Assembly (NCBI GenBank): GCA_046563655.1 | Contig: CM102287.1 | Coordinates: 4,960,001 to 5,024,000, forward strand | Direction: 5' to 3' | DNA from: Yuukianura sp. NJ FZ-2021 | Taxonomy: Eukaryota | Length of the DNA stretch: 64,000 nucleotides | In this document: piece by piece, positions 1 to 54,500 of the stretch | Layout of the letters: each line of letters opens with the position of its first letter | Numbering within the stretch: position 1 is the first letter of the stretch | Made by a program: the position numbers and the translations under genes | Notes under the pieces: generated by a model | The model's database searches: none | Told to the model about the DNA's origin: nothing | What the model saw: only the letters and a program-made list of their open reading frames with translations

Positions 1-758
1 CAGTGATATCTCCCACAACTGCACACTTTCTCCAACATCTTTATCGGTTCATTTAGGCCACATAATCCCTTCATTCTGTTTTCCTAACGACTCCTTTCAC
101 TGTCCAACAAAACCTCACAAAATGACAACTTCAAAATTTTGAAATTTTGGTCATAATGGTAGAAAACCGAGCTTTTTGGGCCGATGCCAGCGGGAAACTG
201 ACCTCAACTTTTCCTCCACGAGTGGGCACATGCACCTAAAAGAATACTCATTAAAACCAGTAACGAAAACTGTACTAAAAAATTCACTATCCCCAAAGTA
301 CGACATCCGTATTTTCGTTGTCTAATTTCCCCGTCAAATCCTTGCTGTGGCTCTACGTTCTCAAAATTCAAGTCCAACGTCAATCAAACCAAGTAGGAAG
401 AGTTTCTTGTCCCAAATTCAAATTTCAAACGCAACCCGAAACCAGGGCAATGAACGCTCCGCCGGAAAAGCTGTCACGGAACTTACATTTCACTTATATA
501 AGCTACATAGCTTCCGATACCATTCCCATTTTCTCCCACTTCCGCCTCAACTGATCTACAAGATACGGACATCCCAGACACATTTTGACATTTAATGCCA
601 TACTTCCCTTCTTAATCATTTCTAGCTTTCTCGTCCTAATTCCAGTTCCAGGAAATACTAAGTTCTACATCAGTGGAGAAAGTGGTATACAGCCTCATCA
701 GCTCATCCTAAGGACAACACGACAGCGGAATGCGGTTTCTCCTTTAACCTTCTTTGGG

Positions 759-12279: not shown

Positions 12280-13313
12280 AAATTGACACATTTTCAGTTG
12301 AGGTTCTTTCCGTCCCTGAGAGAAAGTGGATTTGTGAGGTTAGGAGAGGGATTTCAGGGTTCCTGATTTATGTCATTCCCTCTGCTTCCGCTTTCTCTTC
12401 CACCACAACCATTTCCAACCAAATACCAAAAACCTATTTCATTTGCCTTTTGCATTTAGTCGAAGAGGTCGTGAGGTCGAGAGCTGGAACTTGATTTCTC
12501 TTTTGAATTTTCGCCTCCAATTCCACGACATCCATGAATTCAGTGGATTTTTGAGTCAGACTTTCTGACTCAAAAATCTGCATTCATTTTCACTTTCACC
12601 ATAACGTAAACTGAACCCTCCCATAAAAAGAACTAATTAATGTCAACAAAGGAAAACCAGAAACACTTAAATTAATTTCCAGGAAAATCAAAAAGGACAT
12701 GAAAGTGAAACTGAACCATGCTTTTGCAAAACTAAATTTTTTAAAGAAACCTCATAACTTACGCCCAAATCAAACTTTCTGCTATACTCCAAAATTTATG
12801 CTCCCAATTGGATTCGAACGACTTTCTCCACCTCCCAAACTCTCAAGAGACATGGAAACGACGACCGTTTTAATTAAATGTCCATAATTCATATGGATCA
12901 TAAAACCTGCACTTTCATTACTACCATACGAAGTTCCACTAATCCATGAAAAGCTAACAAAACATTCCAGAAATTCTTCTCAAAACTTTCTCCATTGAGA
13001 GCACAATGGCCTCCAAGGTCGCTTGCAAAAACCACCAATTCGGCACGACTCACTAAAAACGCAATTTTTTTTGTCTCATAAAAATGTGCCTTTGAAAAAA
13101 ATATTCACCACTTTTCTTTTTCTTTCGATTCTACTGCCAAGTACAAGTCCAATGCATTGAAAATGCTCCGTTGATTGAATCGGAGGAAAGAAAAAAAAAA
13201 AACATAATACCTTGTCGAACTTCGAACTTTTTTAACTTTCCCTTCTATTTTTCCTCCATTTTCACTTTGATGGTGGGAGTAACTTTGGATTTAATGTTTC
13301 CCTAGTGAGAATC
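12280..13313. repeat. Paralogous non-coding module C-D-G, copy 1 (others at ~16855-17455 and ~28271-29590)
   Basis: AAAnTGACACATTTTC, AAAGTGGATTTGTGAGGTTAG, TGATTT(T)ATGTCATTCC, AATTGGATTC, CGTTTTAATTAAATGnCCATAAnTCAnATGGnTCATAAAACC and GTAnCTTTG..TTAATG occur in the same order as at 28.3-29.6 kb. Confidence 0.8.
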
Positions 13314-28270: not shown

Positions 28271-29590
28271 AAACTGACACATTTTCTCTGTTGCTTCTAC
28301 GGCTCCTCCTCCTCAGAAAAGTGGATTTGTGAGGTTAGAAGGGATTTTGCCCTTGATTTATGTCATTCCTTTCTCCTACTTTCTCCAAAGCAGTCACAAA
28401 ACTAACGGCTGCAACTGAAATCTCCTATTTGCATTTTCTATTACCTTAAGTTCTAATGCTCCCGCTTTGTAAAGTTCATATAAAGCACCTTAGTACCATA
28501 AATCATCTCATTTCCAAAACAAAACTAGTTTCAAAAACTCAAAATTCCAAAAACACATCCAAAATTGGTTAAAATCACAGAAATTCAAAACAACTCGACT
28601 CGACTTTCCCCGGCTGAAACCAATTCCTAATCCAGACTTTCACCAAACACAAATCAAACTAACATATCAAATATATTTTTCAAAACTCGCAAAAAATTAA
28701 CCTGGAGAGAAAAACTTTCACCGTAACTTCATCAGCTTACTTGAAATTCGCAAAAGTACCAAAAGCACACAAGGTTAATCACTTTTTAAAGTTTCACAGC
28801 GTGAAAAGTAAACTTATTTAGTTCAAAAGCGCCCTGCAGGAACTTATTAAAACGAAAAATTGCGGCGTGCTAACCACAAACATTCCTTTTCGGGTTTCAG
28901 CCTCATTACTTCCCAGAAACTCTTCCGCTCTGCAAGATTTTCTTCAAAAATTCGTCCTCCTTTTTTCCTTTCATGCTTCTTCGTTATTACTCGATGATCG
29001 ATTCTACTCAAGTCCTTAGCCGCCCTAGCCCTCAAGCCTTGTCAGTGCTTGTATCCATCTCATAAAGCTCATTTCTCAAGGAAAACGAAAGATGAAGTCG
29101 CAAAATCTTCCAGAAATCTTCAAGATCCAAAGTTAACACTCCGAATTGGATTCAAAGACGCTCTCTCCTCCATGCTCCTCCTCAGGGTGAGACGGAGGTC
29201 GTTTTAATTAAATGCCCATAACTCAAATGGGTCATAAAACCCAGTTTCATTAATGCAACCACTCAACCCTCTACTCATAAATTTCACAGCTTAAGAGATC
29301 CCAGAAGCTCCTTAAAACCGCAGCATCCAGCACTAAACCCTCACGGTCATTTCTCACAAAACTTCAACTTTGAACCCAAGTCCCACAAAATGAAAAGCAG
29401 CACAAAACTCTAGCCCTATTTTCTCCCACAAAAAAAAAACTCTTCATCCATCGACTCACATGACAGAACATGGAACTGGCGCACTTTTCACCAAAACTTT
29501 GCGCTTTGTGCAGTGTGAGAGGTGGGCGTTGGTGTGAATTGGACTTGAAAGAAGCCGTAGCTTTGTGTTAATGCTCTCCAAGGGAAAATC
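28271..29590. repeat. Paralogous non-coding module C-D-G, copy 3
   Basis: Shares AAAGTGGATTTGTGAGGTTAG with ~12323 and ATTTGCATTTTCTATTACCTTAA with ~16979. Block D is at 29144-29255. Confidence 0.8.
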
Positions 29591-31731: not shown

Positions 31732-34700
31732 AAAGCCTTTCTCCTTCTGTGCCCTCCGCTTTCTATAAAAAGTAGAAAGGAAGACATTATTGACTTGCTC
31801 TCACTCAATATCAGAATTAAATTCCAGATTCACTTCTTACAAAGAAAAATTCAAAATCTGCACGTTTCCCAGAAAAATTCCTTTAAAAAAAATCAAATTT
31901 CGAAATTTTATATAATTCTCTTGCCAAAGAAATCTCATCTTCCCACTTTCTTTTTGTCTTTTCGACAAAAAACGAAACCTCCCAATTCACTTTTCGCAAA
32001 AACTAAAAGCCAATTTGAGCATTTCTTTTTCCAATTGCAATCTCATGTGAACTTTCACATCATTTCTGTTTGATTCACTGTTGAACTAAAAACTGCAAGA
32101 AAGTGTTTCTTCAATCAGTCTCTTGAGAAGAGAGAAGACTCTCTTCACATTTCAACTGAAACAGTATCATTTCAAAGTGAAATGTTTCCATGTTATAATC
32201 GTAACACTAAGGAATGAGTCGTCCTGAAGCAGATTGTTTCTGGCAAATCGGTGTAAATTTATCCATTTTCCATTTCCAACTTATCGTATCTCTCAGTGTT
32301 CAATGGTTCAATCAGATTGAACGACACTTCTCCTACTTTCTCCTTTCCATCCGTAGTCGTTTCCGTGATGTAAGGAAGTGATCCTCGGGGAGATATTGTA
32401 CTACGGTATATGACATCCCACCCACTTACCACTGATACACTCCATTTCAGCTACTTTATACAAGAACTCAAACAATGAGAGCTTCCACAGACTGCAAAGG
32501 GCCTTTGTTCACTACAAAAGTGAACCTCAAGGCAATTCCATTGAAACTATACGTTAGGTCAAAGGTCATTCACTCTATGCTTCACTTCCCTTTCAAACCA
32601 AAGGAAGCACAAGCTGTAGTAGCACTTTTCTTCTTTCTGTAGTAGCCAATATTTCTAACTCGCCAAAAGATAAAGTTGATTTCCCAGTTTGCACATAATT
32701 TACTTCATCTCAAGTTCCATTGCTAGCCTTAAGCTCAGTTAAGTTACTGACCTAACGTATTGAATAAGTCAGACAAAAACATTGCACTAGACTAACTAAC
32801 AAAATACATAAGAAAACACCATGGTCGGGGGAAAACACTTTTAAAAAACGAAGGAAAAAACACCAAAACTTAGATTTTCTTCAAAATCCTATCTCTTTTC
32901 AAATTCTCAAATCGGTTTCTCTAAATTTTAGAATCTTTGGAAATTCGTATACTAAATATTTAACTTGAGAATAAAAAAAAAGTTTTTAGTTTTTCATAAC
33001 TGAACTGCCTTTCGCGAATAAAAAAAAAAGTAACACGTCAAAAACTTTATGCATAACATCGTTCAAAAGTGAAGAAACTTCAACGAAAAGAGCCCTTAGT
33101 ACTTTCACTTTGTCACAAAACTTGTCAATTCCCTTTTGTCACTTAACGATGTCAATTCAAATCCTTCAGGAATAAAAATGGCTCACTTTCTCAAACTCCA
33201 CATTTACACCACTATCAATTTTTTACTGTTGTTCCATAACCGAAAACCTCAACAAAAAAAGCATCGCTTCGCAACTGTTTTCTTCACTTTCCTCTCTTTT
33301 TTTTTGAAAACTCAAAATATAAATCATAACTCCGCATTTATTACATCCTAATGACACAACTTTCTTCATATGTTTGAAATGATCCGAATTCAAGCTGACC
33401 TCAAACTCAGGTCTCGCGCCTGTCCACTTTTCTCCGCCGTCTTTTCTTTGGAGATCAAAAGAATTCCTCGGGGGATCCATAAATGTGTCAACCGAAGAAA
33501 CCAAGACCAAAAAAACTCTATTCATTTCCAAGATTCGCAAAAACTCATCAAAAAGAGCATGTCATCTCCTTTCACTGCCCTCGGCACCACACATACTGGA
33601 CAAGAAAACTGGAACGAGGCTAGTGAGGTCGTTGTGGCAGGCGGATGTGAAAATAATAGGAGTCCAAATCCATTGTCCACTGGCCACAAGAAATCCACAA
33701 AAATTCCCCTGCGAATAAGCTAAAGAAATCCATCATCTTCCCCCTTCTCCACAACTAACTCTAATCACCTCCACTCTTTTCGCTCTTGGTCACAAAGGAA
33801 AACTTTCTCCTCACAATGGAAATGCATACAGAGCAAATCCCTTCCCTCTCCAGTTGTATCTTTCTTTTATGACACAAATTTCTATTATACGACTGCTCCT
33901 TGTTCACTCTCAAAACTTTTTATGTCACTCTGAACGTGGACGTCCACAAAATGTTTCATTCATGGTTCGGTACGGCGCTGTTTCGGAACGGCTCGGATCG
34001 ATACGACACACAATCATCCCTCAGAAAAAAAAAACCGAAAACTGCTTTCTCCTAAAACAATTCGCCACAAATCAAACAAATTATGCAGAAAAAAAAATCT
34101 CAAACATTGCAACTACTACATAATTTATGTAAATTGTAACAACAAAATTTAAACTTCACCCAAACCAGATATAAAATCAACTCCCGACTACAGAAACGCG
34201 CCACTCATCCGATTGAAAACCAAGACCATTTCTGCTGTGTACAATATTTCTCAGCAGAAATTCGGTGAAATTCAAATTCAAAACCGATTGAAACAGGAAA
34301 CCGATTTTTTAAAATGTCGTTTCAATTTCTCCGCATAAGGACCTTCCTCAACTCTGTTCTCTCATACACAAAGAAAATCCAACTGAAACTGACAAATGAC
34401 TAGGATTTATAGTCACGCAGGAAATGGGACAGCAGAATCCTGAATTTTCCAACATTGAAATTAAGACATAAACTTCGTAACTGGACTTCGCAAAAACTCC
34501 AAATTGGGTATTTTGATACATTTTATGACGGGTTGTTAAGGCTTCCTTGTTGGTTTTGTCGAAAACCTGTCTCTCGTGGAAAGCTAGAAAAGAAAAACAA
34601 GTCAAGCAGGTAATGCTCTAGCTCGTCATTTTTCAAAAAACCAAAATAAAAACTAGCAAAAACTTTCACCAATTCCACTAGTTCCAAAAAAATTCTCAAC

Positions 34701-37810: not shown

Positions 37811-38072
37811 CCGAACGCTAAATTTCCCTGCCGAACGTTAAATTTCCCTGCCGAACACTATTTCCACATCGAACACTAAAAATTTCAATGCCGAACACTA
37901 AATTTTCATGCTAAACGCTAAATTTCCATACCGACCACTAAAAATTTCAATGCCGAACACTAAATTTAAACGCTAAATTTCCATACCGACCACTAAAAAT
38001 TTCAATGCCGAACACTAAATTTAAACGCTAAATTTCCATACCGACCACTAAAAATTTCAATGCCGAACACTA
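37811..38072. repeat. Minisatellite: ~20-bp monomers (CCGAACRCTAAATTTCMMTG-like) ending in a 55-bp higher-order repeat x~3
   Basis: Monomers start at 37811. The 55-bp unit AAACGCTAAATTTCCATACCGACCACTAAAAATTTCAATGCCGAACACTAAATTT starts at 37913, 37968 and 38023 (last copy truncated). Confidence 0.93.
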
Positions 38073-39909
38073 TGTCCCCACATTGAACATTTCGAATTTA
38101 GAGCCAACGTCCCATATTTTGGAAAAAGTGAAAGCAATGTGTGAAATTGAAGTAAGCTCAGGTTAACGTTCCCTCCTTGATTGCTTTTTTAAGCTCAGGA
38201 TTACATCTGGGTCGGCCCAATTTCTTAATTATGGCACAAGTGGCTCCTCGAAGACTAATTTCCGCTCAGTTAGCAGGAAAAACTGTTCAATGTGCACAAG
38301 ACCATCTCAGGAGAAACGCAATTTATGCTTTCTTCATCAGTTCTTTCGTAACTCCCAAAAGGGGCGGAAGAGCACAAAGAGGCTTATTAACTTCTGCAAA
38401 AGACGCACCAGAACTTAGCCTATGCCAATTTCCGTCCTCGGAGCATATGGGTCATTTTAATACATCTTCCAAAGTCTTGCAAATTATTTGAAACCTCATC
38501 AACTCCCGAGTTTCGCCAACTGAGCGAAAATTTTCATCACAATTTCAAAATTCCACCGCCACTGAAAGTTCCAAAAACACGCCGGCAAACTCCCAGGTGA
38601 GAAAACGCGACTACCTTACATAAAGTAGCAACATCGACTCAGAAACTAGCGCTAAAACTAGGTAACCCTTAAGAATATTTTAAAAATTTCGGAAACTTCT
38701 CAAAATTTTGCAAAACTAGCCCAAAAAGTTCGCAAACCTCCACAGAATTCGTAAACAAGTCCTACAAGGAGTTTTCTGCGTTGCATCAAAAGTCTGAAAC
38801 TCAAAGTAACCCTGAAAGGTCAACAAAGGTCAACTGTTGCCATCAAACACTTAAAGAGAGTTTCATTTCTTTGTTAAAAACGAAACTCCTGTCACTTGCT
38901 CTTTTTTCTTGACAAAGTACTAAGATGAAAGAAAAACAGGAAATTGGAAAAAGAAAAAAAAACTTTCTCCAAAAGTTCAAAAGGTCATCTCATCGGTAGT
39001 GGCAAAAAAAGAAAAAAAAACAAAGGAAAGGCGACTCCCTATACTAATCATCTCACTCAAAAAACCGGAAATTGAACCAAATGTGCAATTTACCCACTTT
39101 CTTACAAACTTCTTTCAATGAGAGGGAAAGTATCCAGACGTATAATTTCCGTTTAAAAAAAAACACTTTTCAAAAAATTACCAAAATTTGACAAACAAAA
39201 ATCCGAGAAGTACCGTACATCTTTTCCAACAATGAATACAATATCTAACCAATATTTCAATTCAAATTCACCATTTTTTCATTATAAAACTGACAGCTTC
39301 AAATTCTAAAAGGCCAACTTTCTCCCAAACTTTCACCTAAAAAACAGAACACGACCAAATTAATAATCGAGTGTCGTTTTTTCACTCTCGTTTGTTGGTT
39401 GACTTAAGCATGATCGTTTTAAAATTTACTCTCCGCAAAATTGAAAGCAGCTTTTCAAAAATCCAACAGAGCAGTAGCAGAAACCAGAGTCAAGAAGCCA
39501 TTCTAGCGAAACCTCGAAACTGAAAAGAACAAAAAACCGTTCGAATGTTCCTTGTGTGAAACAGCTTTCATTGAGTGCTCCCGTAAATCAACTCTTGATT
39601 AATTTCCTCAAATCAACTACAACTAGAGAGAGCTACAACTAACTTCATTAAAATGAATTGGACTCAGCCCTTCGCTCCCTCTTCCCTTTAATAACACTTC
39701 TTTGTCAAAAGAAATCCAGCAACACACATCAACCAAGTTTCGTCCAGAACCAGAACGTGAATACGTGAATACATTTCAAATGAAAAATATCAGTTGTAGA
39801 AACGGAACTAATTTACTCAATCTTTCAGCGTCTCTTTCCTAAAGTAATTGACACTTACGGCAATATAACTCCAATGCTTGCGTCGTTCCTGCTGCTCATC
39901 ACTGTACAT

Positions 39910-41260
39910 TTTTTATTTTTATTTGTAGAATACTCTCCCTGCGGGCCCGCAGCCCATGGAGAGGGAGTTCGATTCATTGGAATGAAGCTAATAACAAATG
40001 TTTAACGTGTGGGGCTGTACAAACTGATAACATTTTGTGGAGAATGATTGATTACATAGTAGGGGTTAAGTCGAAAGAATTTAAATTTAATAGAACTTAT
40101 TTCCGTCTTCTTCGTTCTTTGAATTTTGCCTTCATTTCGTCAAGTTTCGCTTGTAGTAGGGATTTGTTGAGATGATCCAATGATTCATGATTAAGTTCTC
40201 CATAGTGTTCAGCAACTGCTTTTTTGAAGGCGTCTCGGCCCTGTATTGCTGCTAATTTGAAGGAGTGTAATTTGTTGAGTTCTGTATGACCTCCATTGTG
40301 TGCAAGAAGGTCGGGCTGCTTGTGACTAGAGTTTGTGACTGGAATTTGCTGATGTTTGGTGGTGCGGGTGTTATGTTTCGTGGGAGCAGAGTTTGGAAGA
40401 TGAGAATCAGCATGGGAAGCGAAAAACGTCTTCGATGACTTTCTTGTTTCTTGTGGAGATGTGGAGCCTTGCTGAATGGCATCTTGATGTGAAATTTCGG
40501 ATGTTGGAGACTTTAAAGGAGCGCCTGGGTTGGGGTCAAAGGTTTCCTTAAGGATGTGTGACTGGATGACCGGCTGAGGTTTGTCCACGAGAGAGGTGAG
40601 CTCTCCCTTTCCCGCTGGGTGAAACTCGGGTGGAGTACTTTTTGTGGCCATAGAATTTGTAGATGAATCTGCTACTTTCTCCACGTGCTTGGCATCTGAG
40701 TGGTCATTCTGGGACTTACTTTTCGTTCTCTGATGAGGTGGTAAGTCGTCGCTGATTCCGATTGCTGATCCCTTAAGCAAATGACATCGACTGAACAACT
40801 TTGCTTTTTCTGCATTTGACATTAGTGACACGGAAATTGTTCTCTTTTTCCCGAAGACACGGACGGAGTGAATTTGAATTTGGAGTTTTAAGTGTCCAAA
40901 AATCCATTCTGAAATGGTTGAAACAGAAACTCGCTCAATTTGTAATCCGTGGATGATCACAGTGGGATTGTCACAGGGTTTTTGTAATGACATTGTTTCC
41001 GAGAGTCGTTGAGCAAATTGGTCTTTTAACCGATTCAGGTGCAATAGATCCGAATTTGAAAACTGGTTGCTTTGGAGTAGGGACGTTAGTGAATTGAAGC
41101 AAAACTTCGCAATTTCCATAGTGCGAGTCTGGACTGTATAAGTTGGGAATCGAATGGAAAAACAAGAGTCTAAATCCTAGTAAGAGTATAAGTTCTAGTG
41201 ACAAAAGAAAGAGAGCTTGGTGACACACGTCTTGACAGTTTCACGTCTCGAATCGAACTC
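39910..41260 (-). mobile_element. Non-autonomous non-LTR retro-insertion (1351 bp) carrying only an ORF1-like gene
   Basis: Perfect 15-bp target-site duplication CTCATCACTGTACAT at 39895-39909 and 41261-41275. The minus-strand 3' end reads ...AAATAAAAATAAAAAA. Single intronless ORF. Base skew is opposite to the flanks. Confidence 0.9.
40097..41119 (-). CDS. LINE ORF1p-like protein (RRM/CTD type, similar to CR1/L2/L1 Tnp22-like ORF1), 340 aa
   Basis: Intact ATG-to-stop ORF. TVIIHGL...KKRTISVSL...EKAKLF...LLKGSAIGISDDLPPHQR matches the ORF1 pattern (N-I-I-x-G-L...RPI-V-F...LKG--I-I-DDL). This is followed by a long S/T/P/H-rich disordered segment and a basic helical tail (KERRRRK). No APE endonuclease or RT motifs. 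Confidence 0.75.
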   Translation of the reverse strand: MEIAKFCFNSLTSLLQSNQFSNSDLLHLNRLKDQFAQRLSETMSLQKPCDNPTVIIHGLQIERVSVSTISEWIFGHLKLQIQIHSVRVFGKKRTISVSLMSNAEKAKLFSRCHLLKGSAIGISDDLPPHQRTKSKSQNDHSDAKHVEKVADSSTNSMATKSTPPEFHPAGKGELTSLVDKPQPVIQSHILKETFDPNPGAPLKSPTSEISHQDAIQQGSTSPQETRKSSKTFFASHADSHLPNSAPTKHNTRTTKHQQIPVTNSSHKQPDLLAHNGGHTELNKLHSFKLAAIQGRDAFKKAVAEHYGELNHESLDHLNKSLLQAKLDEMKAKFKERRRRK

Positions 41261-42305
41261 CTCATCACTGTACATACTAACATTAGTTTCAAAGAATTCA
41301 ACTTCGTAATGACACGTTTAAATTTTTAGTTCAATTTTAGACACAGAGAAAAAGAAATCCGAAAAAAAAAGTTCAAAAATTCTCCAAATCTATACGAATT
41401 CCCACTGGCATACTGGAAAAAGCCTTCCAATTTTTTCAATCTTCTCAGAGGGCGCGAAAAGTTTGTTTTCCCATTAATTTCTGATTTCAAAACAAGACTA
41501 CTCGCCTTTAAAACTTAAAAAAACTCTCAAAAAACCTTGGTGGCCTGAAAAACCTCTAAATCCTCTCCAAAGGCTTATAGTTGCCACAAGAAAAACTTAA
41601 AAAAACAACCACGGAAGTAGAAAGAAAAAAACTAAAACATCCGAAAAAGCACTGAATCTGACTCTTCAAATTACATCAAGTTTAGACCTGAAGGTAAGGT
41701 GACTAAATTCCACTTTTTCTTTTGTAAGAAGGCCTAAAGGCTGCAACAAGAAAATCAAACGAAATGTGATGCCAAACTTTTTCCTTTTCTCTTTTTCTCC
41801 AAAAAAAGAGAAAGCTTTTTCTCCAAAGGAATTTTCTGATTCCTGTTTCCCTTTCGCTCTACCCACTAAAGGTTAGGTTTCCAGCTCCCAAATCAGCCAA
41901 GTCGTAAACAACATAACTAAAAGTAAAAACTCCCCAGACACTAAAAGCACAAACTTTACAAAGATTTCCTCTCGAGCACACAGTGAAAGTCCAAGTCCGA
42001 ATCCAGAACTCTTCCCGTTATTCTTCTACCTGCCTTCATCACTCCTTCAATTACGTCTCTTTTTTCTTTTACTATCTCCAAAGTCCTAAGAGCCTCAAAA
42101 GACACCAACTTTGTAGAGGATTATGATTGAAAACACCAAAAAACGCAAGAATTTCCCAATTTTCCTGCTTTTAGTTCATGACCTGTTGTCCTGTCGGAGG
42201 TTACAGACTCAAAACACAGTCAATCGTTCAGTTCAAAACAAATAGTGTCGAATTCTGAGCCGAAAGCTCTTAAAAGGCGGAGAGCAGTATGCGGTAAGCG
42301 AGCAC

Positions 42306-46087: not shown

Positions 46088-48326
46088 CTATTCTACTGAG
46101 GGTGTCATCCGCGGTTTCTTTCTAAATATTTTAGACTTTTTGTGCTGATCACTTCCGGGGCCATGAGCATCCCGTTCTCTAAACTTCCGTTTCCCTAGAC
46201 CAGTCAAATCGCAGGGCGGAGGTGTTGAAAAACCATAAGCCTTGGCAACTTCCTTCAAATTCAACTGAGACACGTCAAAAATACTCTTGAGGCTATGAGA
46301 GTCATAGGCTCGGAGAAATGCTTTGTAGGCTTCTCTTGCTGATTGATTCAAATAGTAATTGGTTTGGACTAACTTCTCTAGTTGTGGTTGAACGTTAGCT
46401 ACTTTGCTCCAATCTACTTCGATTTCAGCAACTGGAACTTTGGCTACCTTTAAGTATCTCAGGAATGGAAGTTCTTGAGGTGATAAAATTAGAAGTGCTC
46501 GTCCGGTACCTTCCGCTCCACGTGCTGTTCTGCCTACTCGATGAATGTATTCTCTTGGATCATCTGGAGGATCGACTTGGACAATCCAATCGACACGAGG
46601 AATGTCAAGCCTAAGTTTTATTAAAATGGATTGTATTAATCAAATGAACAAAAAATAATAACGGTATCTATCATTGAACATATTACGCCTTACCCTCTTG
46701 CAGCTACGTCCGTGCAGAGAAGAATTCCTGTCTCAGCTTGACAAAATTGAAAAAACGTTGCAGTACGCTTCACTTGCTTTTGTTTTCCCTAAAATATAAA
46801 TATGGTGGTTAGAGAAGTATAAATCGTTACGATCAGAATCAGACAGCCATACTAAATTAAAATTGTATCATCTTCTTACGTGAATTGAGAGGACTGGGAG
46901 ATCAATGTAGTTGAGTAATTCGTGGTGAAACTTTACTGACAAACAAGTACTGAAGAAAACCATGACTTTCCTCTTCCTATTTCGCTTGAGAAATGTGAAC
47001 AGGAACAAGAATCTTTTATCCGCCGGACATACAATGTATCCTGAAACAGAATCATCAGTTTTAAGTTAGTTGAGCGATCAATTTGAAAGAACACTTTATG
47101 AAAAGTGATCGGTTCCACTTATGTACCTTGTTCTAGGCCATCAACTGTTGCTATTTCCTTCGTGTCGTCAACTCCAACGTACATCGGTTCCTTCTTCAGC
47201 GCCAGTTTGGTCAGTTCTTCGATTTTCTTGGTCGCAGTAGCACTGAAAAGCATGGTTTGCCTGCGCTCTGCCAAGAATTAGTTAAAAAAATTAATTTAAG
47301 ATCCAGTGAACCTTACGATAACTTTAACACAAGTGAATCAAAGCTTACTCGGCAGGAGAGAAACAATTCGCTTCATTTCTTCTTCAAATCCGATCTGCAG
47401 AATCCGATCTGCTTCGTCAATAATCAAGCACTGCAAATTCTTTGTCATAAATTGTGGGGTGTTGTTGAGGTGGTCAAGAAGACGTCCAGGAGTTGCAACA
47501 AGAATAGTAACACCCTTCTTCAACTTATCAGCCTCCGCTTGACGATTTGCTCCTCCAATGACGAGTCCGCATGTTTGTGCTGGAAATTCCTCCATGACTT
47601 CTCGCAAAACCCCAAATATTTGCATTGCCAATTCTCGTGTCGGGGAAATTACAACAGCGCCAGTTCCATTTCGTGGCAACATTCTGAAAAATCGCACAAG
47701 ATGATGATAGGACTTTACTCACACGGTTGTTGGTCGTGATAAGGAATATGATACGTTACCTTAGTTTTGCACAAACGAGTTCTACAGCCGGAATGAGGAA
47801 CGCAAGCGTTTTCCCAGAGCCAGTTCTAGCAGCACCTACTAAATCTCTCCCTTCCAACAAATGCGGAATAGATTTGGCTTGAATTTCTGTCATCGTCTTG
47901 AATCCTAGTTTTTCTATAGCAGTAGCTAAGGGTTCAGACAACTTCAGTTGGGAAAACGACTTCTCAGAGGATATAAGCACTGCCGTTCCAACGTCTGTTC
48001 CTGGCACTGTTCAAAGCAAAAAGAAAATCAACTTTGTAAGTGAATTTTCAATCAGCAATCAGGTGGGCAACAGTAAAGTAAATCAGAACAACTAAATTCT
48101 TATCATTTGGCTTACATGAAATCTTCGTTTCCTCTGGATCTACGGTGGGTACGTCAGCCTTATTTTCGTTATCCTGGGGTGATATTATGGAGTCTTTTTC
48201 AGTGTTGTTGTTGTTAGCAGTCGTCGCTGACACCTCCCTTTTCTGACCTTTCTCTGCTTTTGTTTCAGCCTTCGCAGACCCAGATCCTCCAGCAAATGAT
48301 TTCCGAGGCTTTGATTTTTTCCCCAT
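46088..48326 (-). CDS. DDX18: ATP-dependent DEAD-box RNA helicase DDX18/HAS1 (pitchoune), 570 aa, 7 coding exons
   Basis: Exons 48326-48116, 48006-47760, 47683-47349, 47267-47127, 47040-46880, 46788-46694, 46610-46088 join via GT-AG introns into a 1713-nt ORF. Motifs: Q motif [88 protein letters not shown], and the HAS1-type C-terminus [25 protein letters not shown]. Confidence 0.96.
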
Positions 48327-49707
48327 CTCGAATTCGCTCCGTCAACGGTCAACAATCGTACCAAGTACGTAAGTCAATTGGTAGTTAATTTTCAAACTAA
48401 TCAATTGAAAATGATGAAATGAGTGTTAAAATTTAATTTTTACGTTACTTGCGTAACTACTGCCTGAATCTGAATGCAAAAACAGCAGAGAAAGATCTTT
48501 TGAAGTCGAAGTTTTCGTTTTCCAATTCCAACAACACGCAAATAAAATACCACGTTGGGGTTCAATTTTCGCGCGTAGGCGAGCTGTATTTAGACTCCTT
48601 AGTGAATTGTAGTTACATTAATAAAAATTAAAAAAAAAGAAAACAAATCAAAACCCTGAGCAAAAACAAATCACAACATAAAACGTTAGAAAAAAACACT
48701 GAAGAAAAAGTATTAGATTTGTTATTGCATGAATTAATTTGACCAAAAATCAATGATTGTACCTACCCTACTCTTCTGTTCATTGTATGGCATATTGTTC
48801 GTTAATGTACCACAAAATCATCCGTAGTAGGAGACAAATTTTGGAGGAAGTGAGACGTATTTTCATATTTAAATTCCCTGCGCGCCACAAATGTTTAAAT
48901 CGGCAATTTGGTTTTCCTGCACCAAATGTATATCACTTGTAACCGGCATGGCATTGTGAGCATAAAAGAAATATTTGACAATTACCAACCATTTATTATT
49001 GTTTTCCTTTTTCGTGAGTTTAATAATGGTATCCCTGAGACTTAGATAGATTTCATCAGGAATACATGTTAGATATTTTTAAGTCTTAAATAGATTTCAT
49101 CAAGAAGAAATTTTAGATATTTCTGAGACTTATAGATAGATTTCATCAAAAAGAAATTTTAGATATTCCGAGACGTAGACAGATTTTATCAAGAAGACAT
49201 CTTAGATATTCCTCAATTCCTGAGACTTAGGTAGATAATGTTGTTGTTCTGAGCACTGTTTGTGGAAAACGATGACGGAGTGATTGTCCTGCCATATTCT
49301 CCGGTTCCGGTTACATCAAATGTAACTTTGCTTTACTCCAATTCTAATTTACAAAACAACAACACAGGAGGAAATCTTTTGAGTTTTTTGTGTTTTGTTC
49401 GATTAACCGCATCCAATTAACCGATTCCCCGATTATTGGATAGATTTGATGTTCAGTTGAGAGTTGAATACAGACGGATTCATCGAATATGTGGTAAGCC
49501 TCAAAATACCTTGTTTCTTGTTATGTTATCTTCTTGTCAAACGAAATTCCTGGTCCTCATTTTCTTATTCTTCGTACTTGGAGTTGGAATTCTTTTATTC
49601 TGCAATTTCAGTTCTCGTCTGCCGTCGTTCTTATTGGTGAACGTGGTCTAAGTTTGATATCGATATCACGACTACGTGTGACACGACTTTCAAGTGTTTA
49701 AGAGAAC
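48327..49707. promoter_or_regulatory. Divergent (head-to-head) promoter region of DDX18 and mRpS9
   Basis: ATGs are ~1.38 kb apart. E2F-like TTTTCGCGC at 48566. Inr-like TCAGTT at 49453 with a possible mRpS9 5'-UTR intron 49494-49611. DRE TATCGATA at 49658-49665 inside the 14-bp palindrome TGATATCGATATCA. Confidence 0.6.
49035..49237. repeat. ~43-45-bp tandem repeat (~4.5 copies) in the DDX18/mRpS9 intergenic region
   Basis: Recurring CTGAGACTTAGATAGATTTCATCAAGAAGAAATTTTAGATATT with a few substitutions per copy. Confidence 0.88.
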
Positions 49708-51257
49708 ATGAGTTTAGTTCTGCAAGGCCGGATTCCGTCACAACTGTTTCGAGCTGGGAGACGGAATATTTGTATTACGTCTCTCCTACGAAGTCTGGAA
49801 TCGACTGGTTCTTCGAAACCGGAAACACCATCGACAGTGCCATCGCTACCGAAAGATGAGGAAATCGTTAGACATGATGGAACAGCAGTAGCTACTGTGA
49901 AGAGTTCAACGGAATCAATCAGCAAAGCAATGAAATCCTACCTGGAAAGGGCAGAAGCACATCGTAAGCGTCGAAAATACCGACAAACTACTCTGGTATA
50001 AAAGTTAACATCGTTTTTGAATTTCCAGATAAGTTTATGAAGGAACAGGAAGAGGAGTTTGTGTTTGGGCGCAGGCATTTGGCTAATATGATGGGAAAGG
50101 ATCCCGAAACGTTTACCCAGAAAGACGTAGAGGTATTTATATTGTAAACAGTAAACGTCAATAATTGAAACCTTAAACCCTAACCAAACGTTCTGTTGTC
50201 ATTTATCCAGGAGGCGATTCGTTACCTCTTTCCAGCAGCTGTTTCGGTGGCCTCTGCAAAGCCAATGATGAAACCTCCTCACGAGATTTATCCAAAAGCG
50301 AAGGCGGCTCAGTTTGATGCCTCGGGAAGGCCACATCATCCATTCTTTTATACAGCTAGAGCTAATTTCTTCAGCATCGTTCACGTAAGCTACCAGAACT
50401 ATACACTTTAATACTTGTAATCGTCAATCAACTTTTCCCATGTATTTTATAGGAAGCTGTTTCTAAAATGAATGCGCTTGACGCTGTAACGTCGACTCCT
50501 TTGGATGCAGCGCCAAGTGACCTAACATTTGCCGGAACCATTTGGATATCCAAGGAAGAGCTCGAATCACGGACTCTAGAAGCCCTCAGTGATGATTTGT
50601 ATAACAACTGGGTTAATTGTATGGATCGATTGGCGAGTCACCCCCGTCATGATAGAGAAAAGGAGTTTATCATGTCTTATCGAAAACCGCTTTCAACGGA
50701 TACGTTACAGAAGAAGTTTCCTCCTGTTCGGCTTGATCCTGATGGAAGACAAAGTGTTTGCATGGAAAGTAAGAAAAATAAGCAAATCTAAATTGAACTT
50801 TTGGACTTAATTTTCTATTTGTACAAGTTTGTACCAAGAAGACAGCGCTGGGAAGTGTCACGGTAATGATGCCCGGAACTGGTCAAATTGATATCAATGG
50901 AAAAGGACTCGACTACTTTCCACTCATGAGAGCACGAGAAGCATTTATTTATCCATTACAGTTGAGCAACTGGCTAGGCACAGTTGACGTTACAGCAAAA
51001 ATTAATGGATCTGGTATCATGGCCCAAGCGGCTGCGCTCAGATGGGGATTAGCCATGGGACTTGCGGCACTTGGTAACCACGAAGCGATTACATTTATTT
51101 TCATAATTTTCCAAAAATGTCAATTTGTTTTATAATAGGGGCTGAGATTGAGCCGTTAAGGCTCGCTGGCCTTCTTACCAAGGACAGAAGAAGGAAGGAG
51201 CGAAGGCATAGAGGCTGCGAAGGAGCTCGGGCTGCCTGGACATGGAAAAAGCGATAA
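49708..51257 (+). CDS. mRpS9: Mitochondrial ribosomal protein S9 (uS9m), 404 aa, 6 coding exons
   Basis: Exons 49708-49963, 50029-50132, 50211-50384, 50453-50768, 50828-51073, 51139-51257 give 1215 nt in frame. Arg-rich N-terminal presequence; [50 protein letters not shown]; uS9 domain [10 protein letters not shown]...[14 protein letters not shown]...LAGLLTKD...TWKKR*. AATAAA at 51301. Confidence 0.95.
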
Positions 51258-51593: not shown

Positions 51594-54500
51594 ATGTCCA
51601 ACATGGACAAGCCGCCGAAAGTGTGTCAGCCAGAAGTAAGTGAACAATAGTTAACATTGTTTCAATTGAAATGGACAAAAGTTGTAATTCTTTTTGCTTA
51701 TTCGTAGTGCTTGGACCCATATGGACTGAAACCATGCACGGCGGAGTACTTAGAACGTATGCGAAACGTTGCTCGAATGAACAACTACGATGTCAAGTCA
51801 TTCTTCACTGAGCACGATCCTTTGGAATTTGGGACAGTGACGGGTAAGCTTAGCTTGACAATAATGTGATACTTTGGAATCCAGTTATGAGTTATGACCT
51901 TTGAGTTTTTTTTTACAGAACACATCTTCAAATCCATTTTCGAAGAAAAGTTCATGTGTCAATGCTGCTTTTCATGCGAGCAGAGCGAAGTCATCTACGA
52001 TCTGTTCCGAATGCCAGACGGAATGATCTGTTACCAAAGACTGGTCGGTTTGCTGACTTCAGGTACTAAATTGTTGCTAAATTCTGCAAAAGTATTAACT
52101 GCAGATGAAATTGGAAACAATAATGCTGGAACTTTTTTTTCTAGACGAGAACATCGCTCAGCAACTTCGAGAATGTGCTTCCAAGGTTCCGTTTCCACAA
52201 GTGTCTGAAGCTCCTCTCCGCGTAAGCTAAAATTGACATTTTGAATACCAAAATAAACAGTTGCAGCGATTTCGTTCCATTTGTCTGCTTAGGTATGTGG
52301 AGCGCGGGTATTTGGAACGGAGCAATGTGTTCCAGCGATTTTGGAACGTCTGCGGACAGCATACTGGCGTCTTCGCATTAAGTTGACTGATTTGTTTCGC
52401 TGTGCTGACCCGCAATGCAAGGGCCTTGTTCCAGGTTTGCTTTGGATAATTTTGGATTTTGAATTTGGATTTATTTTTTGCTTTGTTTTTGCCTAATATT
52501 TTAGAAGAGACATTCCAGCGCATGCTGAACTCGACTCTGGTTCCTGAAGCTGGAATCACCGAGCGCCAATTGGATGCTGTGACTAACTACTACCGTGCTT
52601 GTGGAAACATGATTGATTACAAACGCATGGCAGACATGTTTGACTCCAGTAATCCAGAATTTGATTTGTTGAACATCCAATATTTTTTTAAGTACTGTAC
52701 TTATTGTTTTTGTACTTTCCAGCTCTGAGTCTCCAAGAACAGTATCAACTGAATTACATCACGAAACGGGAACAATTGCTGCCTCCGAAGAAAGTCAACA
52801 CTTTGGATGAACTGGAAGAAGAAAAAGTCAAGGAGATCTGGGTGAAAGTGGCTAAAAGAGCAAATCGTCACATTTTCACAACTTGCACCGCATATTTTGA
52901 CAAGGTTTGTTTGGAACTGATTCGTAATGACTCTGGATACTAAAATTTGGATTTAATTATACTAATTGATTGATTAATTTATTCGCAGTTTGCTCATCGC
53001 CAATCCGGTGAAACAACGGTTCCGCACTTGAAGCGATTTTTGATTTTCCTGGATGCTGATTTGGCTGAATCGGATTTTTCTCTCCTCTGCCGCAAATATG
53101 CCACAAATGACTTCAATGTGAACTTTGTTCAGCTCATTTCGGACGTTTACGCGGCGTATTACACGATATGTGACCAAACTAAAGCTCCTCTACCGCCAAT
53201 TCTTGGTGTAAGATTTTTTTATATGAACGAATGCTTAGTTTATATTCAAGATTATAACGCCATAATTATTTGTGTTTTATAACAAGGCCGATGGTCCTCC
53301 GTATGATGATCTACCTTACTACCCAATGGCCAACGGCGCTGGAAAGAACAGTTCTGCTTGGGGTCACGGTGTTTGCAAATGCGCCAGCGAAGATGAACAT
53401 TTGGCGGGAGCTTGTCTTCCAGCAGACTCCACCCGATTCTATGAAGAAGGACCTGTTTGTGGCGGTGATGGACGAATTCCGATCTGGGGAAAGCAGTACG
53501 TCGCTAACGGATGTTGTGCTAGGCCAGGTAAAGTTTTCCAAAATATTTTCAAATCAGTTTTTTGGATTTATGCTTTTGAAAGTTTATTGGATTATGACAA
53601 TTTTTATAGGCCAGCGTTATTCCGGTAGCTTCATCAAATCCCATGCTGCTGGAAAACCGACTGGAATCCCCTTGGGGAAAACGATCAATCCGATTCCTGT
53701 CCCTGGAGCAAGTGAGGGCGTCGAGCTAAGACATTTGATGGAACGCTTGCAGCAGTACCTGTATCGCTTCCGTGTACGCACCAAGGAATTCTTCAAGGTT
53801 AGAACCACAAAAACTTAACAACAATCTTGGATTAGAATTTTGAAATTTTGCTAATTTGGAATTGAAATTCCAGCCATTTGATCCCCTCAACTCTGGCTTT
53901 GTGAGTGCAAATCGCTTCCGGCGTGCCCTGACCAACATGGGAATTGGAGCCATTGGACGGCTGTGCTTATCCGAAGCAGAGTACGACGCTCTCATCAATT
54001 TTTATCGCTGTGACAAAGACCATTCGATGGCTTGCTGGAGAAAGTTCGACGCTGACATTGAGTCAAGTAAGACCCTCACTGATTTTTGAACAACTTTGAA
54101 TTAAAAAGCGGCAATTTTTATGACGTTTGTCGCTTTGATTTGCAGTTTTCGTTCAGAAGGGATTGGAGGAATTGCCTGGCGTACTGACTCCTGCACCAGA
54201 TCGGATTGTGGCTCTACCGTATCCAGGAGCCACGAACATGGAAGATGTCCACTTGCCAATTCGACAGTTAGCTGACTGCGCAGTAGCTCGGCTGCGACAT
54301 CGCGTTCTGATTGAGAGTTGCAACATCAAATACTTCTTGCAGGGTTTTGACGTGTAAGTTTTGGATCTAAAATGCTTTTTCTTGGAATTTGGAATTTGTT
54401 AATTTTGATTAGTTTGTACTTTTTTAGCACGAATAACGGCTACATCTCTCGACAGCAATTCAAACAAACGTTGTCCATGTTGAACTACAATTTCAGTGCA

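Follow-up and report, generated by a model that had tools for sequence, protein, structure and literature searches.

A young, polymorphic retrotransposon insertion encoding an ORF1p-like protein and no reverse transcriptase, from a probable non-autonomous LINE-type family

Known ORF1-only and LINE-dependent elements

Elements of the ORF1-only kind are already known from HAL1 and HeT-A. In an excerpt from PMC5753468, which cites Smit 1999 and Bao & Jurka 2010, HAL1 is presented as a derivative of LINEs that is non-autonomous, having ORF1p as its sole product and relying on LINE ORF2p. HeT-A lacks ORF2 as well, and about 40% of the telomeric TE families of Drosophilids are ORF1-only according to passages of PMC13534243, where the telomeric elements are described as head-to-tail arrays (average 8 kb). 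A first-pass annotation of the locus described here had placed ORF1-only elements mainly in vertebrates, and thus overlooked these Drosophila families. SINEs also depend on LINEs, in that a SINE tail derives from the 3′ region of a LINE, which is the part that is recognised (PMC5786205, in part).

The element that we describe here lies in a stretch of 64,000 nucleotides of Yuukianura sp. NJ FZ-2021 (contig CM102287.1), hereafter called the window. It has leader, ORF1, trailer, A-rich tail and target-site duplication (TSD) in the same layout as HAL1. However, HAL1 is a mammalian derivative of the L1 clade, whereas the window element is from an arthropod, its protein has neither a match to Transposase_22 nor a folded C-terminal domain (CTD), and it carries an Inr/DPE-type motif at its 5′ end and a conserved hairpin before its tail. 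Furthermore, its ORF-only layout reaches relatives with only 25-38% best-segment protein identity. We rejected HAL1 in the strict sense, i.e. as an L1-clade derivative, on the ground that neither the window ORF nor any of 15 relatives matches Transposase_22 (PF02994).

Like HeT-A and the other Drosophilid telomeric elements (Jockey clade), the window element is an arthropod non-LTR element that lacks ORF2 and would obtain its reverse transcriptase (RT) in trans, but it is 1.35 kb long, dispersed and flanked by a TSD. The Gag proteins of Drosophilid telomeric elements carry CCHC knuckles, whereas the window protein has an RNA recognition motif (RRM) and no CCHC pattern in its 340 residues, which hold only three cysteines. 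A HeT-A-like telomeric element, which would lie in an array and have no TSD, is ruled out by this missing pattern and by the single dispersed, TSD-flanked insertion among ordinary genes, one of which, a DDX18 helicase gene, lies 5 kb from the element. SINEs and other LINE-tail parasites carry the 3′ module of a partner LINE, and the last ~63 nt of the window element likewise occur in other repeats. SINEs, however, are short, lack coding capacity and are transcribed by Pol III, whereas this element is protein-coding and bears a Pol II-type core promoter motif.

We consider it probable that the element belongs to a multi-copy, non-autonomous LINE-type family that encodes an ORF1p-like protein only and neither endonuclease (EN) nor RT, and that it is a full-length, recently transposed copy. 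The first-pass annotation had likewise read it as a young non-autonomous family that may borrow RT and endonuclease from a partner LINE, and this reading is supported by copies with other flanks, an empty site and structural matches to L1 ORF1p.

Structure of the insertion

The element is flanked by two copies of the direct repeat CTCATCACTGTACAT, which agree at all 15 positions (39895-39909 and 41261-41275; Table 1). The base before each copy differs (G versus C), which limits the repeat to exactly 15 bp. Read on the minus strand, the element ends in ...CTACAAATAAAAATAAAAA, with AATAAA within. The dissection given by the first-pass annotation stands throughout: the TSD that it called perfect is so, and for its 5′ UTR of ~140 nt, ORF of 340 aa and 3′ UTR of ~190 nt we measured 141 nt, 340 aa and 187 nt, with the AATAAA/A-rich tail present. 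From stop to stop, the frame of this ORF spans 359 aa.

Table 1. Positions of the element and its parts in the window
Feature	Coordinates	Strand	Basis
TSD copy, element 3′ side, CTCATCACTGTACAT	39895..39909	.	empty-site joint: 15 letters fit both sides
Whole ORF1-only non-autonomous retrotransposon, 1351 bp	39910..41260	-	gone from empty-site contigs; both ends common to other copies
A-rich tail with AATAAA	39910..39932	-	other copies: runs of 8-9 T (= A) here, then unrelated flanks
3′ terminal module, ~63 nt, presumed handle for partner RT	39910..39972	-	common to other, more abundant repeat families
3′ UTR, 187 nt	39910..40096	-	some copies without 39980/39985-40095
Two-tier hairpin: 6-bp outer stem, internal loop, 6-bp inner stem, 3-nt loop	39933..39963	-	folding
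Intact ORF, 340 aa + stop, ORF1p-like protein	40097..41119	-	ATG-to-stop; homologues; structure
C-terminal helical pair, codons 279-339	40103..40285	-	conserved with P0001, P0012, P0008; AF2 model
Disordered middle, codons 151-278, low conservation	40286..40669	-	pLDDT <50; alignment
RRM, codons 51-130, beta-alpha-beta-beta-alpha-beta	40730..40969	-	AF2 model, block-mean pLDDT 89-97
5′ UTR, 141 nt	41120..41260	-	sequence and ORF bounds
DPE-type motif AGACGTGT, element positions 29-36	41225..41232	-	8/8 of consensus RGWCGTKY
Second 7-mer AGACGTG, element positions 13-19	41242..41248	-	sequence
5′ end GAGTTC, initiator-like, presumed transcription start	41255..41260	-	loose ends at 41261/41262
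TSD copy, element 5′ side	41261..41275	.	repeat and empty-site contigs

A 15-bp direct repeat is by itself weak evidence of insertion, because such pairs are commoner in the window than in simulated sequence: at spacings of 300-6000 bp the window contains 11 exact pairs of 15-mers, from 8 loci, while 30 Markov simulations yielded 2.5 on average. The decisive evidence for insertion is the empty site.

Empty sites and dispersed copies

We compared the region with public assembled contigs from three runs, X1, X2 and X3, of which X1 and X2 represent two studies. In contigs from both X1 and X2, position 39894 is joined straight to 41261, so that 1366 bases are skipped and 15 letters fit either side. 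The depth of the empty-site contig is 2.9 in X1 and 195 in X2, the latter equal to that of the X2 flanks. X1 also contains the filled left junction, in one contig across 39518-39960. Since the filled and the empty form occur together in one run, the insertion is polymorphic and young. The first-pass annotation had proposed a test for an empty site in other individuals.

Copies with other flanks also exist. Summed contig depth in X1 is ~13-83 over the element and 0.6-9 over its flanks; the corresponding ranges in X2 are ~420-1250 (8127 at the tail) and 160-470, and in X3 the element is covered while flank depth is zero except for one bin at the right junction. Loose contig ends cluster at both termini. 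At 41261/41262, at least four contigs represent other copies that stop at the 5′ base of the element and have unrelated flanks, and at 39909-39912 at least five contigs run through T-runs into unrelated sequence, the length of the A-run differing among copies. Contigs aligned to the region at identities of at least 99%, 95-99%, 90-95% and below 90% number 15, 15, 11 and 3 in X1 and 31, 40, 26 and 11 in X2. Some copies have a shortened 3′ UTR, with joints 39979->40096 and 39984->40096 in public contigs. The TSD sequence that is present only once at the empty site, the tail that abuts the TSD and the dispersed copies together identify an insertion of the non-LTR type made by target-primed reverse transcription (TPRT).

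Absence of copying enzymes, and relatives found in other organisms

Only two ORFs of at least 60 aa lie within the element, and the 340-aa ORF matched no Pfam family at E<=10. A Pfam scan of 147 further window frames of at least 75 aa gave no match to RT or endonuclease. These are 147 of the 157 frames listed for the window, the other ten being the element's own three and seven of the helicase region; of those ten, a separate scan took in the element ORF and two from the helicase region. An autonomous LINE is therefore ruled out, there being no RT or EN in the element and no Pfam family for its sole long ORF. As no copying enzyme is encoded, it would have to come from another element.

Homologous sequences were found in four metagenome contigs (L001-L004), each of which has one intact ORF (256-369 aa) followed by a trailer of 160-410 nt. 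Their proteins are about 25-38% identical to that of the window (best-segment tblastn), and L002 and L004 continue past the tail into unrelated flank. No RT or endonuclease family matched any of the 49 frames of at least 40 aa in these contigs. The claim that the element lacks RT thus holds for the element, the window frames searched and the four related contigs. Judged from sequence, the ORF-only layout and similar end motifs recur in contigs of four or more other organisms, and so the ORF-only elements would form a lineage and are not a one-off.

Conserved ends

The end motifs are conserved across species. The 5′ start GAGTTCGA recurs in L002 at position 200, and L001 has a similar start. 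The DPE-type motif of the window element matches, in both sequence and position, the DPE of Drosophila non-LTR elements, for which a consensus at +29 to +36 is reported in Doc, F, G, I and jockey (PMC1636488, in part). The window element and L002 share AGACGTG at positions 29-35. These motifs suggest that transcription starts at the first bases of the element.

At the 3′ end, a conserved hairpin before the tail is typical of ‘stringent’ LINEs, e.g. L2 and CR1. The window hairpin has a minimum free energy of -17.9 kcal/mol (z -1.7), and 27 nt of it are 93% identical to L002 1250-1276, while the proteins are only ~25-28% identical. Folding predicts the same architecture in L001, L002 and L004, with modest z-scores of -1.4 to -2.1 (four sequences, too few for covariation).

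The terminal module that includes this hairpin is also found in other repeats. Depth in the bin 39909-39995 is 82.9, 8127 and 785 in X1, X2 and X3, compared with 13-49, 424-1254 and 135-434 over the element body. Behind 39972/39974 the contigs diverge in all three runs into two different consensus sequences with 30 nt visible, which makes the module common to at least two other families, seen over 30 nt of those families only. These families could be SINE-like rather than RT-bearing. A search of viral_contigs and genome_contigs for an autonomous LINE with the element's tail gave no tail-pattern matches, and no autonomous LINE with the element's ORF1 was found.

These data bear on two other origins. 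The element could be a one-time insertion of one LINE transcript that had been polyadenylated prematurely or had lost ORF2 by internal deletion. There is an AATAAA in the trailer, and internal-deletion derivatives of LINEs are known, e.g. for R2 (PMC3414825, in part). We regard this origin as highly improbable, however, since multiple copies have the same two ends and different flanks, other organisms have related ORF-only elements, and the terminus of the element is marked by a conserved hairpin and is no arbitrary internal polyadenylation point. The objection of premature polyadenylation, which had been raised for this locus at the outset, does not apply, as L001-L004 likewise combine a single ORF with a short trailer and lack RT.

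Alternatively, the copies could be processed retrocopies of one expressed and possibly intron-containing host gene, perhaps domesticated like L1TD1, with a LINE-type tail by chance. A single abundant mRNA would also give common ends, TSDs and A-tails, and a host mRNA from an Inr/DPE promoter keeps the +1 to +36 leader motif. This origin nevertheless seems improbable to us, given that the ORF-only layout with similar end motifs recurs in at least four other organisms, and that the 3′ module is common to other, more abundant repeats. Moreover, the identity of the copies spans <90% to >99%, and subfamilies with a different 3′ UTR exist among them, a pattern that fits master-copy turnover, and the young polymorphic copy still has its intact ORF and promoter motifs.

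The encoded protein

In a homologue search of 1.84 billion representatives, the window protein gave 11 matches at E<=1e-3, the best of which (1.1e-9) extends along its full length. A search of the PDB by sequence profile gave no match for it. Its predicted RRM has matches in the PDB at Z 7.2-8.3 by VIA, among them the L1 ORF1p RRM (2w7a_B, Z 8.1, rmsd 2.6 Å over 76 residues). For the window protein alone, the L1 ORF1p RRM thus ranks level with generic RRMs (VIA Z 8.1 versus 8.3-7.2). By Foldseek, the top seven matches of the window protein are human L1 ORF1p (E 1e-4 to 1e-3). For L004, L1 ORF1p fills the first ten places (E 1.6e-6 to 8.6e-5), ahead of the next match at 2.2e-3. By VIA, L004 reaches Z 11.1, 10.7 and 10.2 to human L1 ORF1p over 132-134 residues that include both RRM and CTD (the best being 134 residues at 2.8 Å), whereas its best match outside L1 ORF1p has Z 9.1 over 75 residues.

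The comparison with L1 ORF1p that had been proposed for this protein thus placed human chains on top for both the window protein and L004, and these predicted structures support homology of the single ORF to LINE ORF1p. The earlier label of ‘LINE ORF1p’ therefore stands on structure, where L1 ORF1p provides the best PDB matches, and fails as a sequence-family assignment, as Transposase_22 is not matched.

Type II ORF1 proteins (CC-RRM-CTD) are reported in the L1, CR1, L2 and R1 clades (PMC4120745, in part). They (PDB 2yko; PF02994) are the best structural match to the protein family described here: their central RRM is also predicted in the window protein, and the RRM and CTD of L004 superpose on human L1 ORF1p. 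The CTD that packs on the RRM is present in L004 but absent from the window protein, which differs further in its short N-terminal helices (residues 2-17 and 22-43 in the AF2 model, compared with one predicted helix of 90 residues in L004), in disorder in place of the CTD and in an extra C-terminal helical pair.

The disordered middle begins within the stretch in which relatives carry the CTD (about codons 128-165). Past residue 140 the pLDDT is below 55, and residues that are hydrophobic in the CTD of relatives are substituted. No CTD was found in the other reading frames of the element. In human L1 ORF1p, the CTD is required for RNA binding. With its folded CTD lost, the window protein may be impaired or may work differently.

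Sequence variation and the possible need for the protein

Among the best-supported ORF variants listed, beyond which there are 127 further variants, 9 are synonymous and 16 non-synonymous (n=25). Against an expected synonymous share of 22%, the one-sided binomial p is 0.086, which hints weakly at purifying selection among copies.

The ORF might be a passenger. The element would in that case be a long SINE-like RNA that moves by its LINE-derived 3′ hairpin and tail, and the CTD-less protein would be unneeded and decaying. In keeping with this, the CTD is degenerate both in the window copy and in P0002, its closest relative, and 128 of the 340 residues are predicted to be disordered in the AF2 model. 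In addition, the variants listed for the middle region (codons 151-278) are mostly non-synonymous (12 to 4), and one contig has a frame-breaking internal deletion of 196 nt. On the other hand, the window copy and all four related contigs retain an intact ORF despite 25-38% identity, which would be hard to maintain without selection on an active lineage. Conservation with P0001 also extends along the whole length, taking in the N-terminal helices, the RRM core and the C-terminal helices, and only 4 of the 25 variants among those listed fall in codons 1-140. We therefore think a passenger ORF unlikely, though a better candidate than either of the two origins considered above.

Proposed mechanism

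For the non-autonomous LINE-type family that we favour, transposition could proceed as follows. Pol II would start at the first bases of the element, directed by an internal core promoter of the initiator/DPE type; since it is internal, every full-length copy would bring its own promoter. The resulting mRNA of ~1.35 kb would be translated into the 340-aa protein, with its predicted N-terminal helices, RRM, disordered middle and C-terminal helical pair, and this ORF1p-like protein probably coats its own RNA. An autonomous LINE with the same ~63-nt 3′ module would supply the ORF2 protein that recognises the hairpin and the A-rich tail. This borrowed enzyme would nick the target, here after ...GTACAT on the plus strand of the window. 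Reverse transcription would be primed on the tail, and a staggered second nick would give rise to the 15-bp duplication. We infer RNA binding by the protein, the need for it, and the identity and use of the partner LINE. The family is probably still active, because the window copy is polymorphic, its ORF is intact and its promoter motifs are kept.

Implications

In the full-text literature that we searched, no ORF1-only family that is dispersed and has an ORF1 of the L1 (RRM) type is described for springtails or any other hexapods outside the insects, and the family described here appears to be undescribed. More tentatively, its layout might be no short-lived deletion derivative, and it might belong to an old, self-sustaining lineage of obligate LINE parasites that has lasted through several arthropod species, which kept its promoter, its RNA-binding protein and its RT-recognition hairpin while remodelling the protein, the latter perhaps helping it to compete for or hijack the partner's ORF2p. 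We think this broader proposal rather unlikely; if true, it would make these elements a natural system for what ORF1p does that ORF2p cannot. The remodelling envisaged would consist of the loss of the CTD and the gain of the long disordered region and the C-terminal helical pair.

Annotation can easily mistake such elements for host genes, since they resemble an intact 340-aa ‘hypothetical protein’. At 1.35 kb, the family is a small and tractable system in which to ask why a LINE parasite retains an ORF1 protein, by what means the RT of another element is recruited through a 3′ hairpin and whether an ORF1p without a CTD works.

Structure of the element and its surroundings

The 15-mer CTCATCACTGTACAT occurs twice in the window sequence, at 39895-39909 and 41261-41275. 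The base before each copy differs, so the repeat is exactly 15 bp long, and the two copies enclose the 1351 bp of 39910-41260. The first-pass annotation had claimed a perfect 15-bp target-site duplication (TSD), a 5′ UTR of about 140 nt, a 340-aa ORF and a 3′ UTR of about 190 nt, and our values (15 bp, 141 nt, 340 aa and 187 nt) bear this out. The only other ORF of at least 60 aa overlapping the element region is a 76-aa frame within the main ORF. The G+C content of the element is 42%, as against 38% for the window, and blastn of the element against the window returned only the element itself, i.e. no second copy within the window. Pairs of 15-mer direct repeats at such spacing number 11 (8 loci) in the window, where 30 Markov simulations give 2.5 pairs on average; taken alone, a 15-bp direct repeat at the element's spacing is thus insufficiently rare as evidence.

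Features of the window (window coordinates) and of the protein encoded by the main ORF (residues)
Feature	Position	Strand	Details
Leader		minus	141 nt (element sequence)
Main ORF	41119-40097	minus	ATG to stop, 340 aa (ORF calling)
Trailer		minus	187 nt; terminal ...CTACAAATAAAAATAAAAA, AATAAA inside
DDX18/HAS1 (pitchoune)-type DEAD-box helicase gene	46091-48341	minus	~7 exons; introns ~40-60 bp
Exon with Ribosomal_S9/S16 match	50797-51132	plus	E 1e-15
EF-hand exon	53844-54086	plus	
Helices	residues 2-17, 22-43		AlphaFold2
Beta-alpha-beta-beta-alpha-beta domain	residues 51-130		AlphaFold2, block-mean pLDDT 89-97
Helix	fading by residue 154		AlphaFold2
Disorder	residues 151-278		AlphaFold2
Two helices	residues 279-339		AlphaFold2

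The element lies about 5 kb from the helicase gene, in an intergenic or intronic position. The window is eukaryotic; the helicase gene has introns of about 40-60 bp. Its last exon has matches to Helicase_C and CTE_SPB4. Among named taxa, the springtail Orchesella cincta comes closest to this exon (75% identity, 91% coverage); metagenome proteins are 77-80% identical, and the next named taxa reach at most 66% at similar coverage, which makes a collembolan or related hexapod a plausible candidate host. The exon with the Ribosomal_S9/S16 match probably belongs to a ribosomal protein S16 gene.

Several repeats were also observed. A tandem array at 37811-38072, about 1.8 kb from the insertion site, has nested periods of 20, 55 and 110 bp, with three perfect 55-bp units at 37912-38076, and 49035-49210 holds four tandem copies of a 44-bp unit with 80% matches. 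Exact 15-16-mers recur about 3.94-3.96 kb apart (28371/32328 and 28935/32872), which suggests paralogy or duplication between 28371-28950 and 32328-32887. Two direct copies of a 53-nt sequence (12855-12907 and 29189-29241), with 83% identity and 16 kb between them, are possibly a small dispersed repeat.

The insertion is polymorphic and the element is multi-copy

We compared contigs of four public sequencing runs with 39300-41900. One contig from run X1 and one from run X2, which come from different studies, join 39894 directly to 41261, omitting 1366 bases, with 15 letters ambiguous. The joint represents the precise empty site, carrying one 15-mer only, the allele that the first-pass annotation had proposed to look for. 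The X2 empty-site contig has a depth of 195, equal to that of its own flanks. X1 contains an empty-site contig at depth 2.9 and also a contig spanning 39518-39960, at depth 4.91, that crosses the filled left junction. Since empty and filled forms coexist in this run, the insertion is carried by some chromosomes and missing from others.

The element is also present in more than one copy. Summed contig depths, which are not copy numbers and are usable only as a sign of more than one copy, are about 13-83 in the element as against 0.6-9 in the flanks for X1, about 420-1250 as against 160-470 for X2, and 135-785 for run X3, where the flanks are at zero save a single right-junction bin (23). In the list of 18 loose ends (27 more are unlisted), element-matching contigs leave for unrelated sequence at 41261/41262 in four cases (three in X3, one in X2), and at 39909-39912 in two X2 and three X3 contigs, where runs of 8-9 T, i.e. 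A on the element strand, precede differing flanks. Because contigs break into unrelated sequence at both ends of the element, other copies must share its termini, lie elsewhere and have A-tails of differing length; the further copies with identical ends beside different flanks, anticipated in the first-pass annotation, are thus present in the run contigs. Identity of matching contigs to the element region ranges from below 90% to above 99%. In some variants, the trailer is shorter by 111-116 nt (joints 39979/39984 to 40096), and one contig has an internal 196-nt deletion. The fourth run, the metagenome X6, gave a share of 0.07 and a single 242-nt contig at 40060-40301. The six runs listed as containing the sequence include no RNA run, which carries no information on expression.

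The heptamer ATGTACA, with its palindromic TGTACA core, directly follows the tail in the window element (39895-39909, sense ATGTACAGTGATGAG) and in a related metagenome contig, L004 (about 1544-1551). Four other copies among the run contigs have 3′ flanks without it, and its occurrence in the first two may reflect chance or a weak target preference.

No reverse transcriptase in the frames scanned

The claimed lack of a reverse transcriptase (RT) held in every frame scanned. No Pfam family matched the 340-aa ORF at E≤10, and 147 of the 157 stop-to-stop frames of at least 75 aa in the window contain no RT or endonuclease, the only matches being Ribosomal_S9 and EF-hand. The ten frames left out of that scan are the element's three and seven from the helicase region; three of these ten, namely the main ORF and two from the helicase region, were covered by separate scans.

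Sequence searches with the ORF returned few relatives. A homologous-protein search had no match among 866 candidates, a search with profile A3 recovered only P0004, a protein already in the alignment, and a sequence-profile search of the PDB gave one chance-level match (E 8.6). A HMMER scan of 1.84 billion representatives found 11 matches at E≤1e-3, none at ≤1e-10. The best of these, P0001 (295 aa, E 1.1e-9), has an alignment that begins at the N-terminal MEV..FC motif and reaches the C-terminal helices. The ORF and its relatives have a common core, ..IIHGL.. / ..F.NCHKLKG..IGITEDL..ER.., which in most relatives runs on into ..L...A...GK.AFFRG..L.ID... None of the protein relatives has a significant Pfam match. 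Baculo_FP was considered and rejected as an identity for the ORF: an ESM Atlas lead (0.81) pointed to a nematode-labelled cluster and Baculo_FP, and leads for the related contig L003 pointed to Baculo_FP_2nd clusters (0.88) and a Transposase_22 cluster (0.85), and hmmscan confirmed Baculo_FP for no member.

The ORF is predicted to encode a LINE-1-type ORF1p without its C-terminal domain

The window protein was modelled with AlphaFold2 from a 13-sequence alignment (mean pLDDT 64.9). Chains of the human LINE-1 (L1) ORF1p trimer hold ranks 1-7 in Foldseek (E 9.8e-5 to 1.1e-3; TM on target 0.33-0.36 across about 130 columns), and generic RRM proteins come after them. Structure comparison with VIA independently confirmed the RRM fold for residues 47-132, and placed the L1 ORF1p RRM (2w7a_B; Z 8.1, 2.6 Å, 76 residues) level with ordinary RRMs (Z 8.3-7.2). 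For the window protein alone, the tie to L1 ORF1p would thus rest on the predicted helix-plus-RRM arrangement, and we therefore modelled the relative encoded by L004.

The L004 model (266 aa, mean pLDDT 79.2) opens with a single helix (2-90); the RRM spans 127-207, and residues 211-248 form a further helix and three strands. Human L1 ORF1p takes each of the model's first ten Foldseek ranks (E 1.6e-6 to 8.6e-5), and the eleventh match is 25-fold weaker. In VIA, residues 121-259 of the model superpose on residues 149-323 of the L1 ORF1p chain, i.e. the RRM plus the C-terminal domain (CTD), with Z 11.1 (2.8 Å over 134 residues), followed by 10.7 and 10.2; the top match other than L1 ORF1p has Z 9.1 over 75 residues. 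The L004 match to RRM plus CTD argues, at the level of predicted structure, that the protein family of the window ORF is built as coiled coil, RRM and CTD, like 'type II' ORF1p, a type also reported from CR1, L2 and R1 clade elements (PMC4120745). The first-pass assignment to LINE ORF1p is thus supported by the ranking of human L1 ORF1p for both proteins.

The CTD of the window copy itself is lost. In the alignment, the positions that are hydrophobic in the relatives' CTD are substituted, and AlphaFold2 gives no confident model for this region. When ten relatives were compared with the element by tblastn, none of the other frames contained a CTD, and those relatives that have the domain aligned only up to about residue 135. 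The closest relative over the RRM, P0002 (48% identity), is also without a CTD.

Relatives with the same layout

Metagenome contigs were scanned with alignment A2, a closer set of relatives, since alignment A1 was too diverse for this purpose. Four loci were found: L001 (1392 bp), L002 (1368), L003 (1520) and L004 (1865). The same search found no relatives in viral_contigs (88 pattern matches) or genome_contigs (40 pattern matches). Each locus has one intact ORF of 256-369 aa, then a non-coding stretch of 160-410 nt, and none of their 49 frames of at least 40 aa matches RT or endonuclease families. L002 and L004 run into unrelated 3′ sequence, which leaves no space for an ORF2. No direct repeat of at least 8 nt was found at the inferred ends of L002, and the TSD search in L004 gave just a 9-mer internal to the tail repeat.

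Among the 40 best-supported variant positions in the run contigs (127 more are unlisted), 25 fall in the ORF, of which 9 are synonymous and 16 non-synonymous; 22% synonymous changes are expected at random (one-sided binomial p = 0.086). Within this list, 12 of the 16 non-synonymous variants lie in codons 151-278, and codons 1-140 have just 4 variants of any kind. Because the list is limited to the best-supported variants, the pattern is a hint of selection at most. The stronger argument for selection is that the window copy and each of the four distant relatives have kept the ORF intact.

Conserved motifs at both ends

The element begins with GAGTTCGATTCG. L002 has GAGTTCGAGTG at position 200, a match (78% identity over 36 nt) that is collinear but weak by E-value, and L001 starts with CGAGTTTGG. 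The octamer AGACGTGT occupies element positions 29-36, with a second AGACGTG at 13-19, and AGACGTG recurs at positions 29-35 of the L002 element and 24-30 of the L001 element. The octamer fits the downstream promoter element (DPE) consensus A/G-G-A/T-C-G-T-G/T-C/T, located at about +29 to +36 in Doc, F, G, I and jockey, which are non-LTR elements of Drosophila; the F element has an additional upstream DPE copy (PMC1636488). This 8-mer consensus occurs 20 times in the 128,000 positions of both window strands. Since the motif is found at an equal offset in two distant relatives and is rare window-wide, its presence reflects conservation, and we read the octamer region as a putative internal Pol II core promoter.

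At the 3′ end, 27 nt at the window hairpin are 93% identical to L002 1250-1276, and the encoded proteins are just 25-28% identical. All four tails fold as a two-tier hairpin with some 20 nt of A-rich or AAATCA-type repeats behind it. Folding z-scores of the hairpin are just -1.4 to -2.1, and a test for covariation would require more than these four sequences. The whole 3′ UTR folds no better than shuffles (z -0.44), and we propose that its structured part is the terminal hairpin only. Rfam gave no match on the window at gathering score, and a 25-nt tail pattern (2 N) had no match in viral_contigs or genome_contigs. In some other copies (39910-39937), the hairpin is kept and the last ~20-27 nt differ, reading on the element strand, e.g., ...CTGTTTGATTAAAAAAA or ...GGTACTGTTAAATAAAAAAAAA; the post-hairpin segment thus varies among copies or subfamilies.

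Depth peaks in the bin 39909-39995, i.e. the last ~85 nt (82.9, 8127 and 785 in X1, X2 and X3; element body 13-49, 424-1254 and 135-434), and in all three runs contigs matching 39910-39972/39974 diverge beyond this point into at least two other sequences. The peak and the divergence thus indicate that other, more abundant families of the same genome carry the terminal ~63 nt (hairpin plus tail), although the other tail-sharing families are seen over 30 nt only. Such a shared module would be expected if an autonomous LINE's recognition handle had been copied by its parasites.

Proposed mechanism and relation to known elements

Transcription would start from the element's own Inr/DPE-type promoter, at a site that we infer, and the translated RRM protein may coat its own RNA. 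The hairpin and tail at the 3′ end would presumably be recognised by the ORF2p of a partner LINE. If the window plus strand were nicked after ...GTACAT, which in the filled allele lies between 41275 and 41276, reverse transcription could be primed on the tail, and a second nick 15 bp away would give rise to the TSD that is observed in the filled allele.

The first-pass annotation had called the family possibly undescribed. In the full-text literature, with subscription journals and Repbase outside the search, we found no such family described in springtails and no dispersed type-II ORF1-only family in arthropods, which favours this suggestion, and the family may already be catalogued in those other sources. 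The ORF1-only kind of element is itself already known: the HAL1 elements of mammals are described as encoding only ORF1p (PMC5753468), and HeT-A and about 40% of Drosophilid telomeric families are reported to be without ORF2 (PMC13534243). The present family differs from HAL1 in its probable host, promoter type, 3′ hairpin and CTD-less protein. Unlike HeT-A-type elements, which are built on CCHC knuckles, it is small, dispersed, TSD-flanked and RRM-built.
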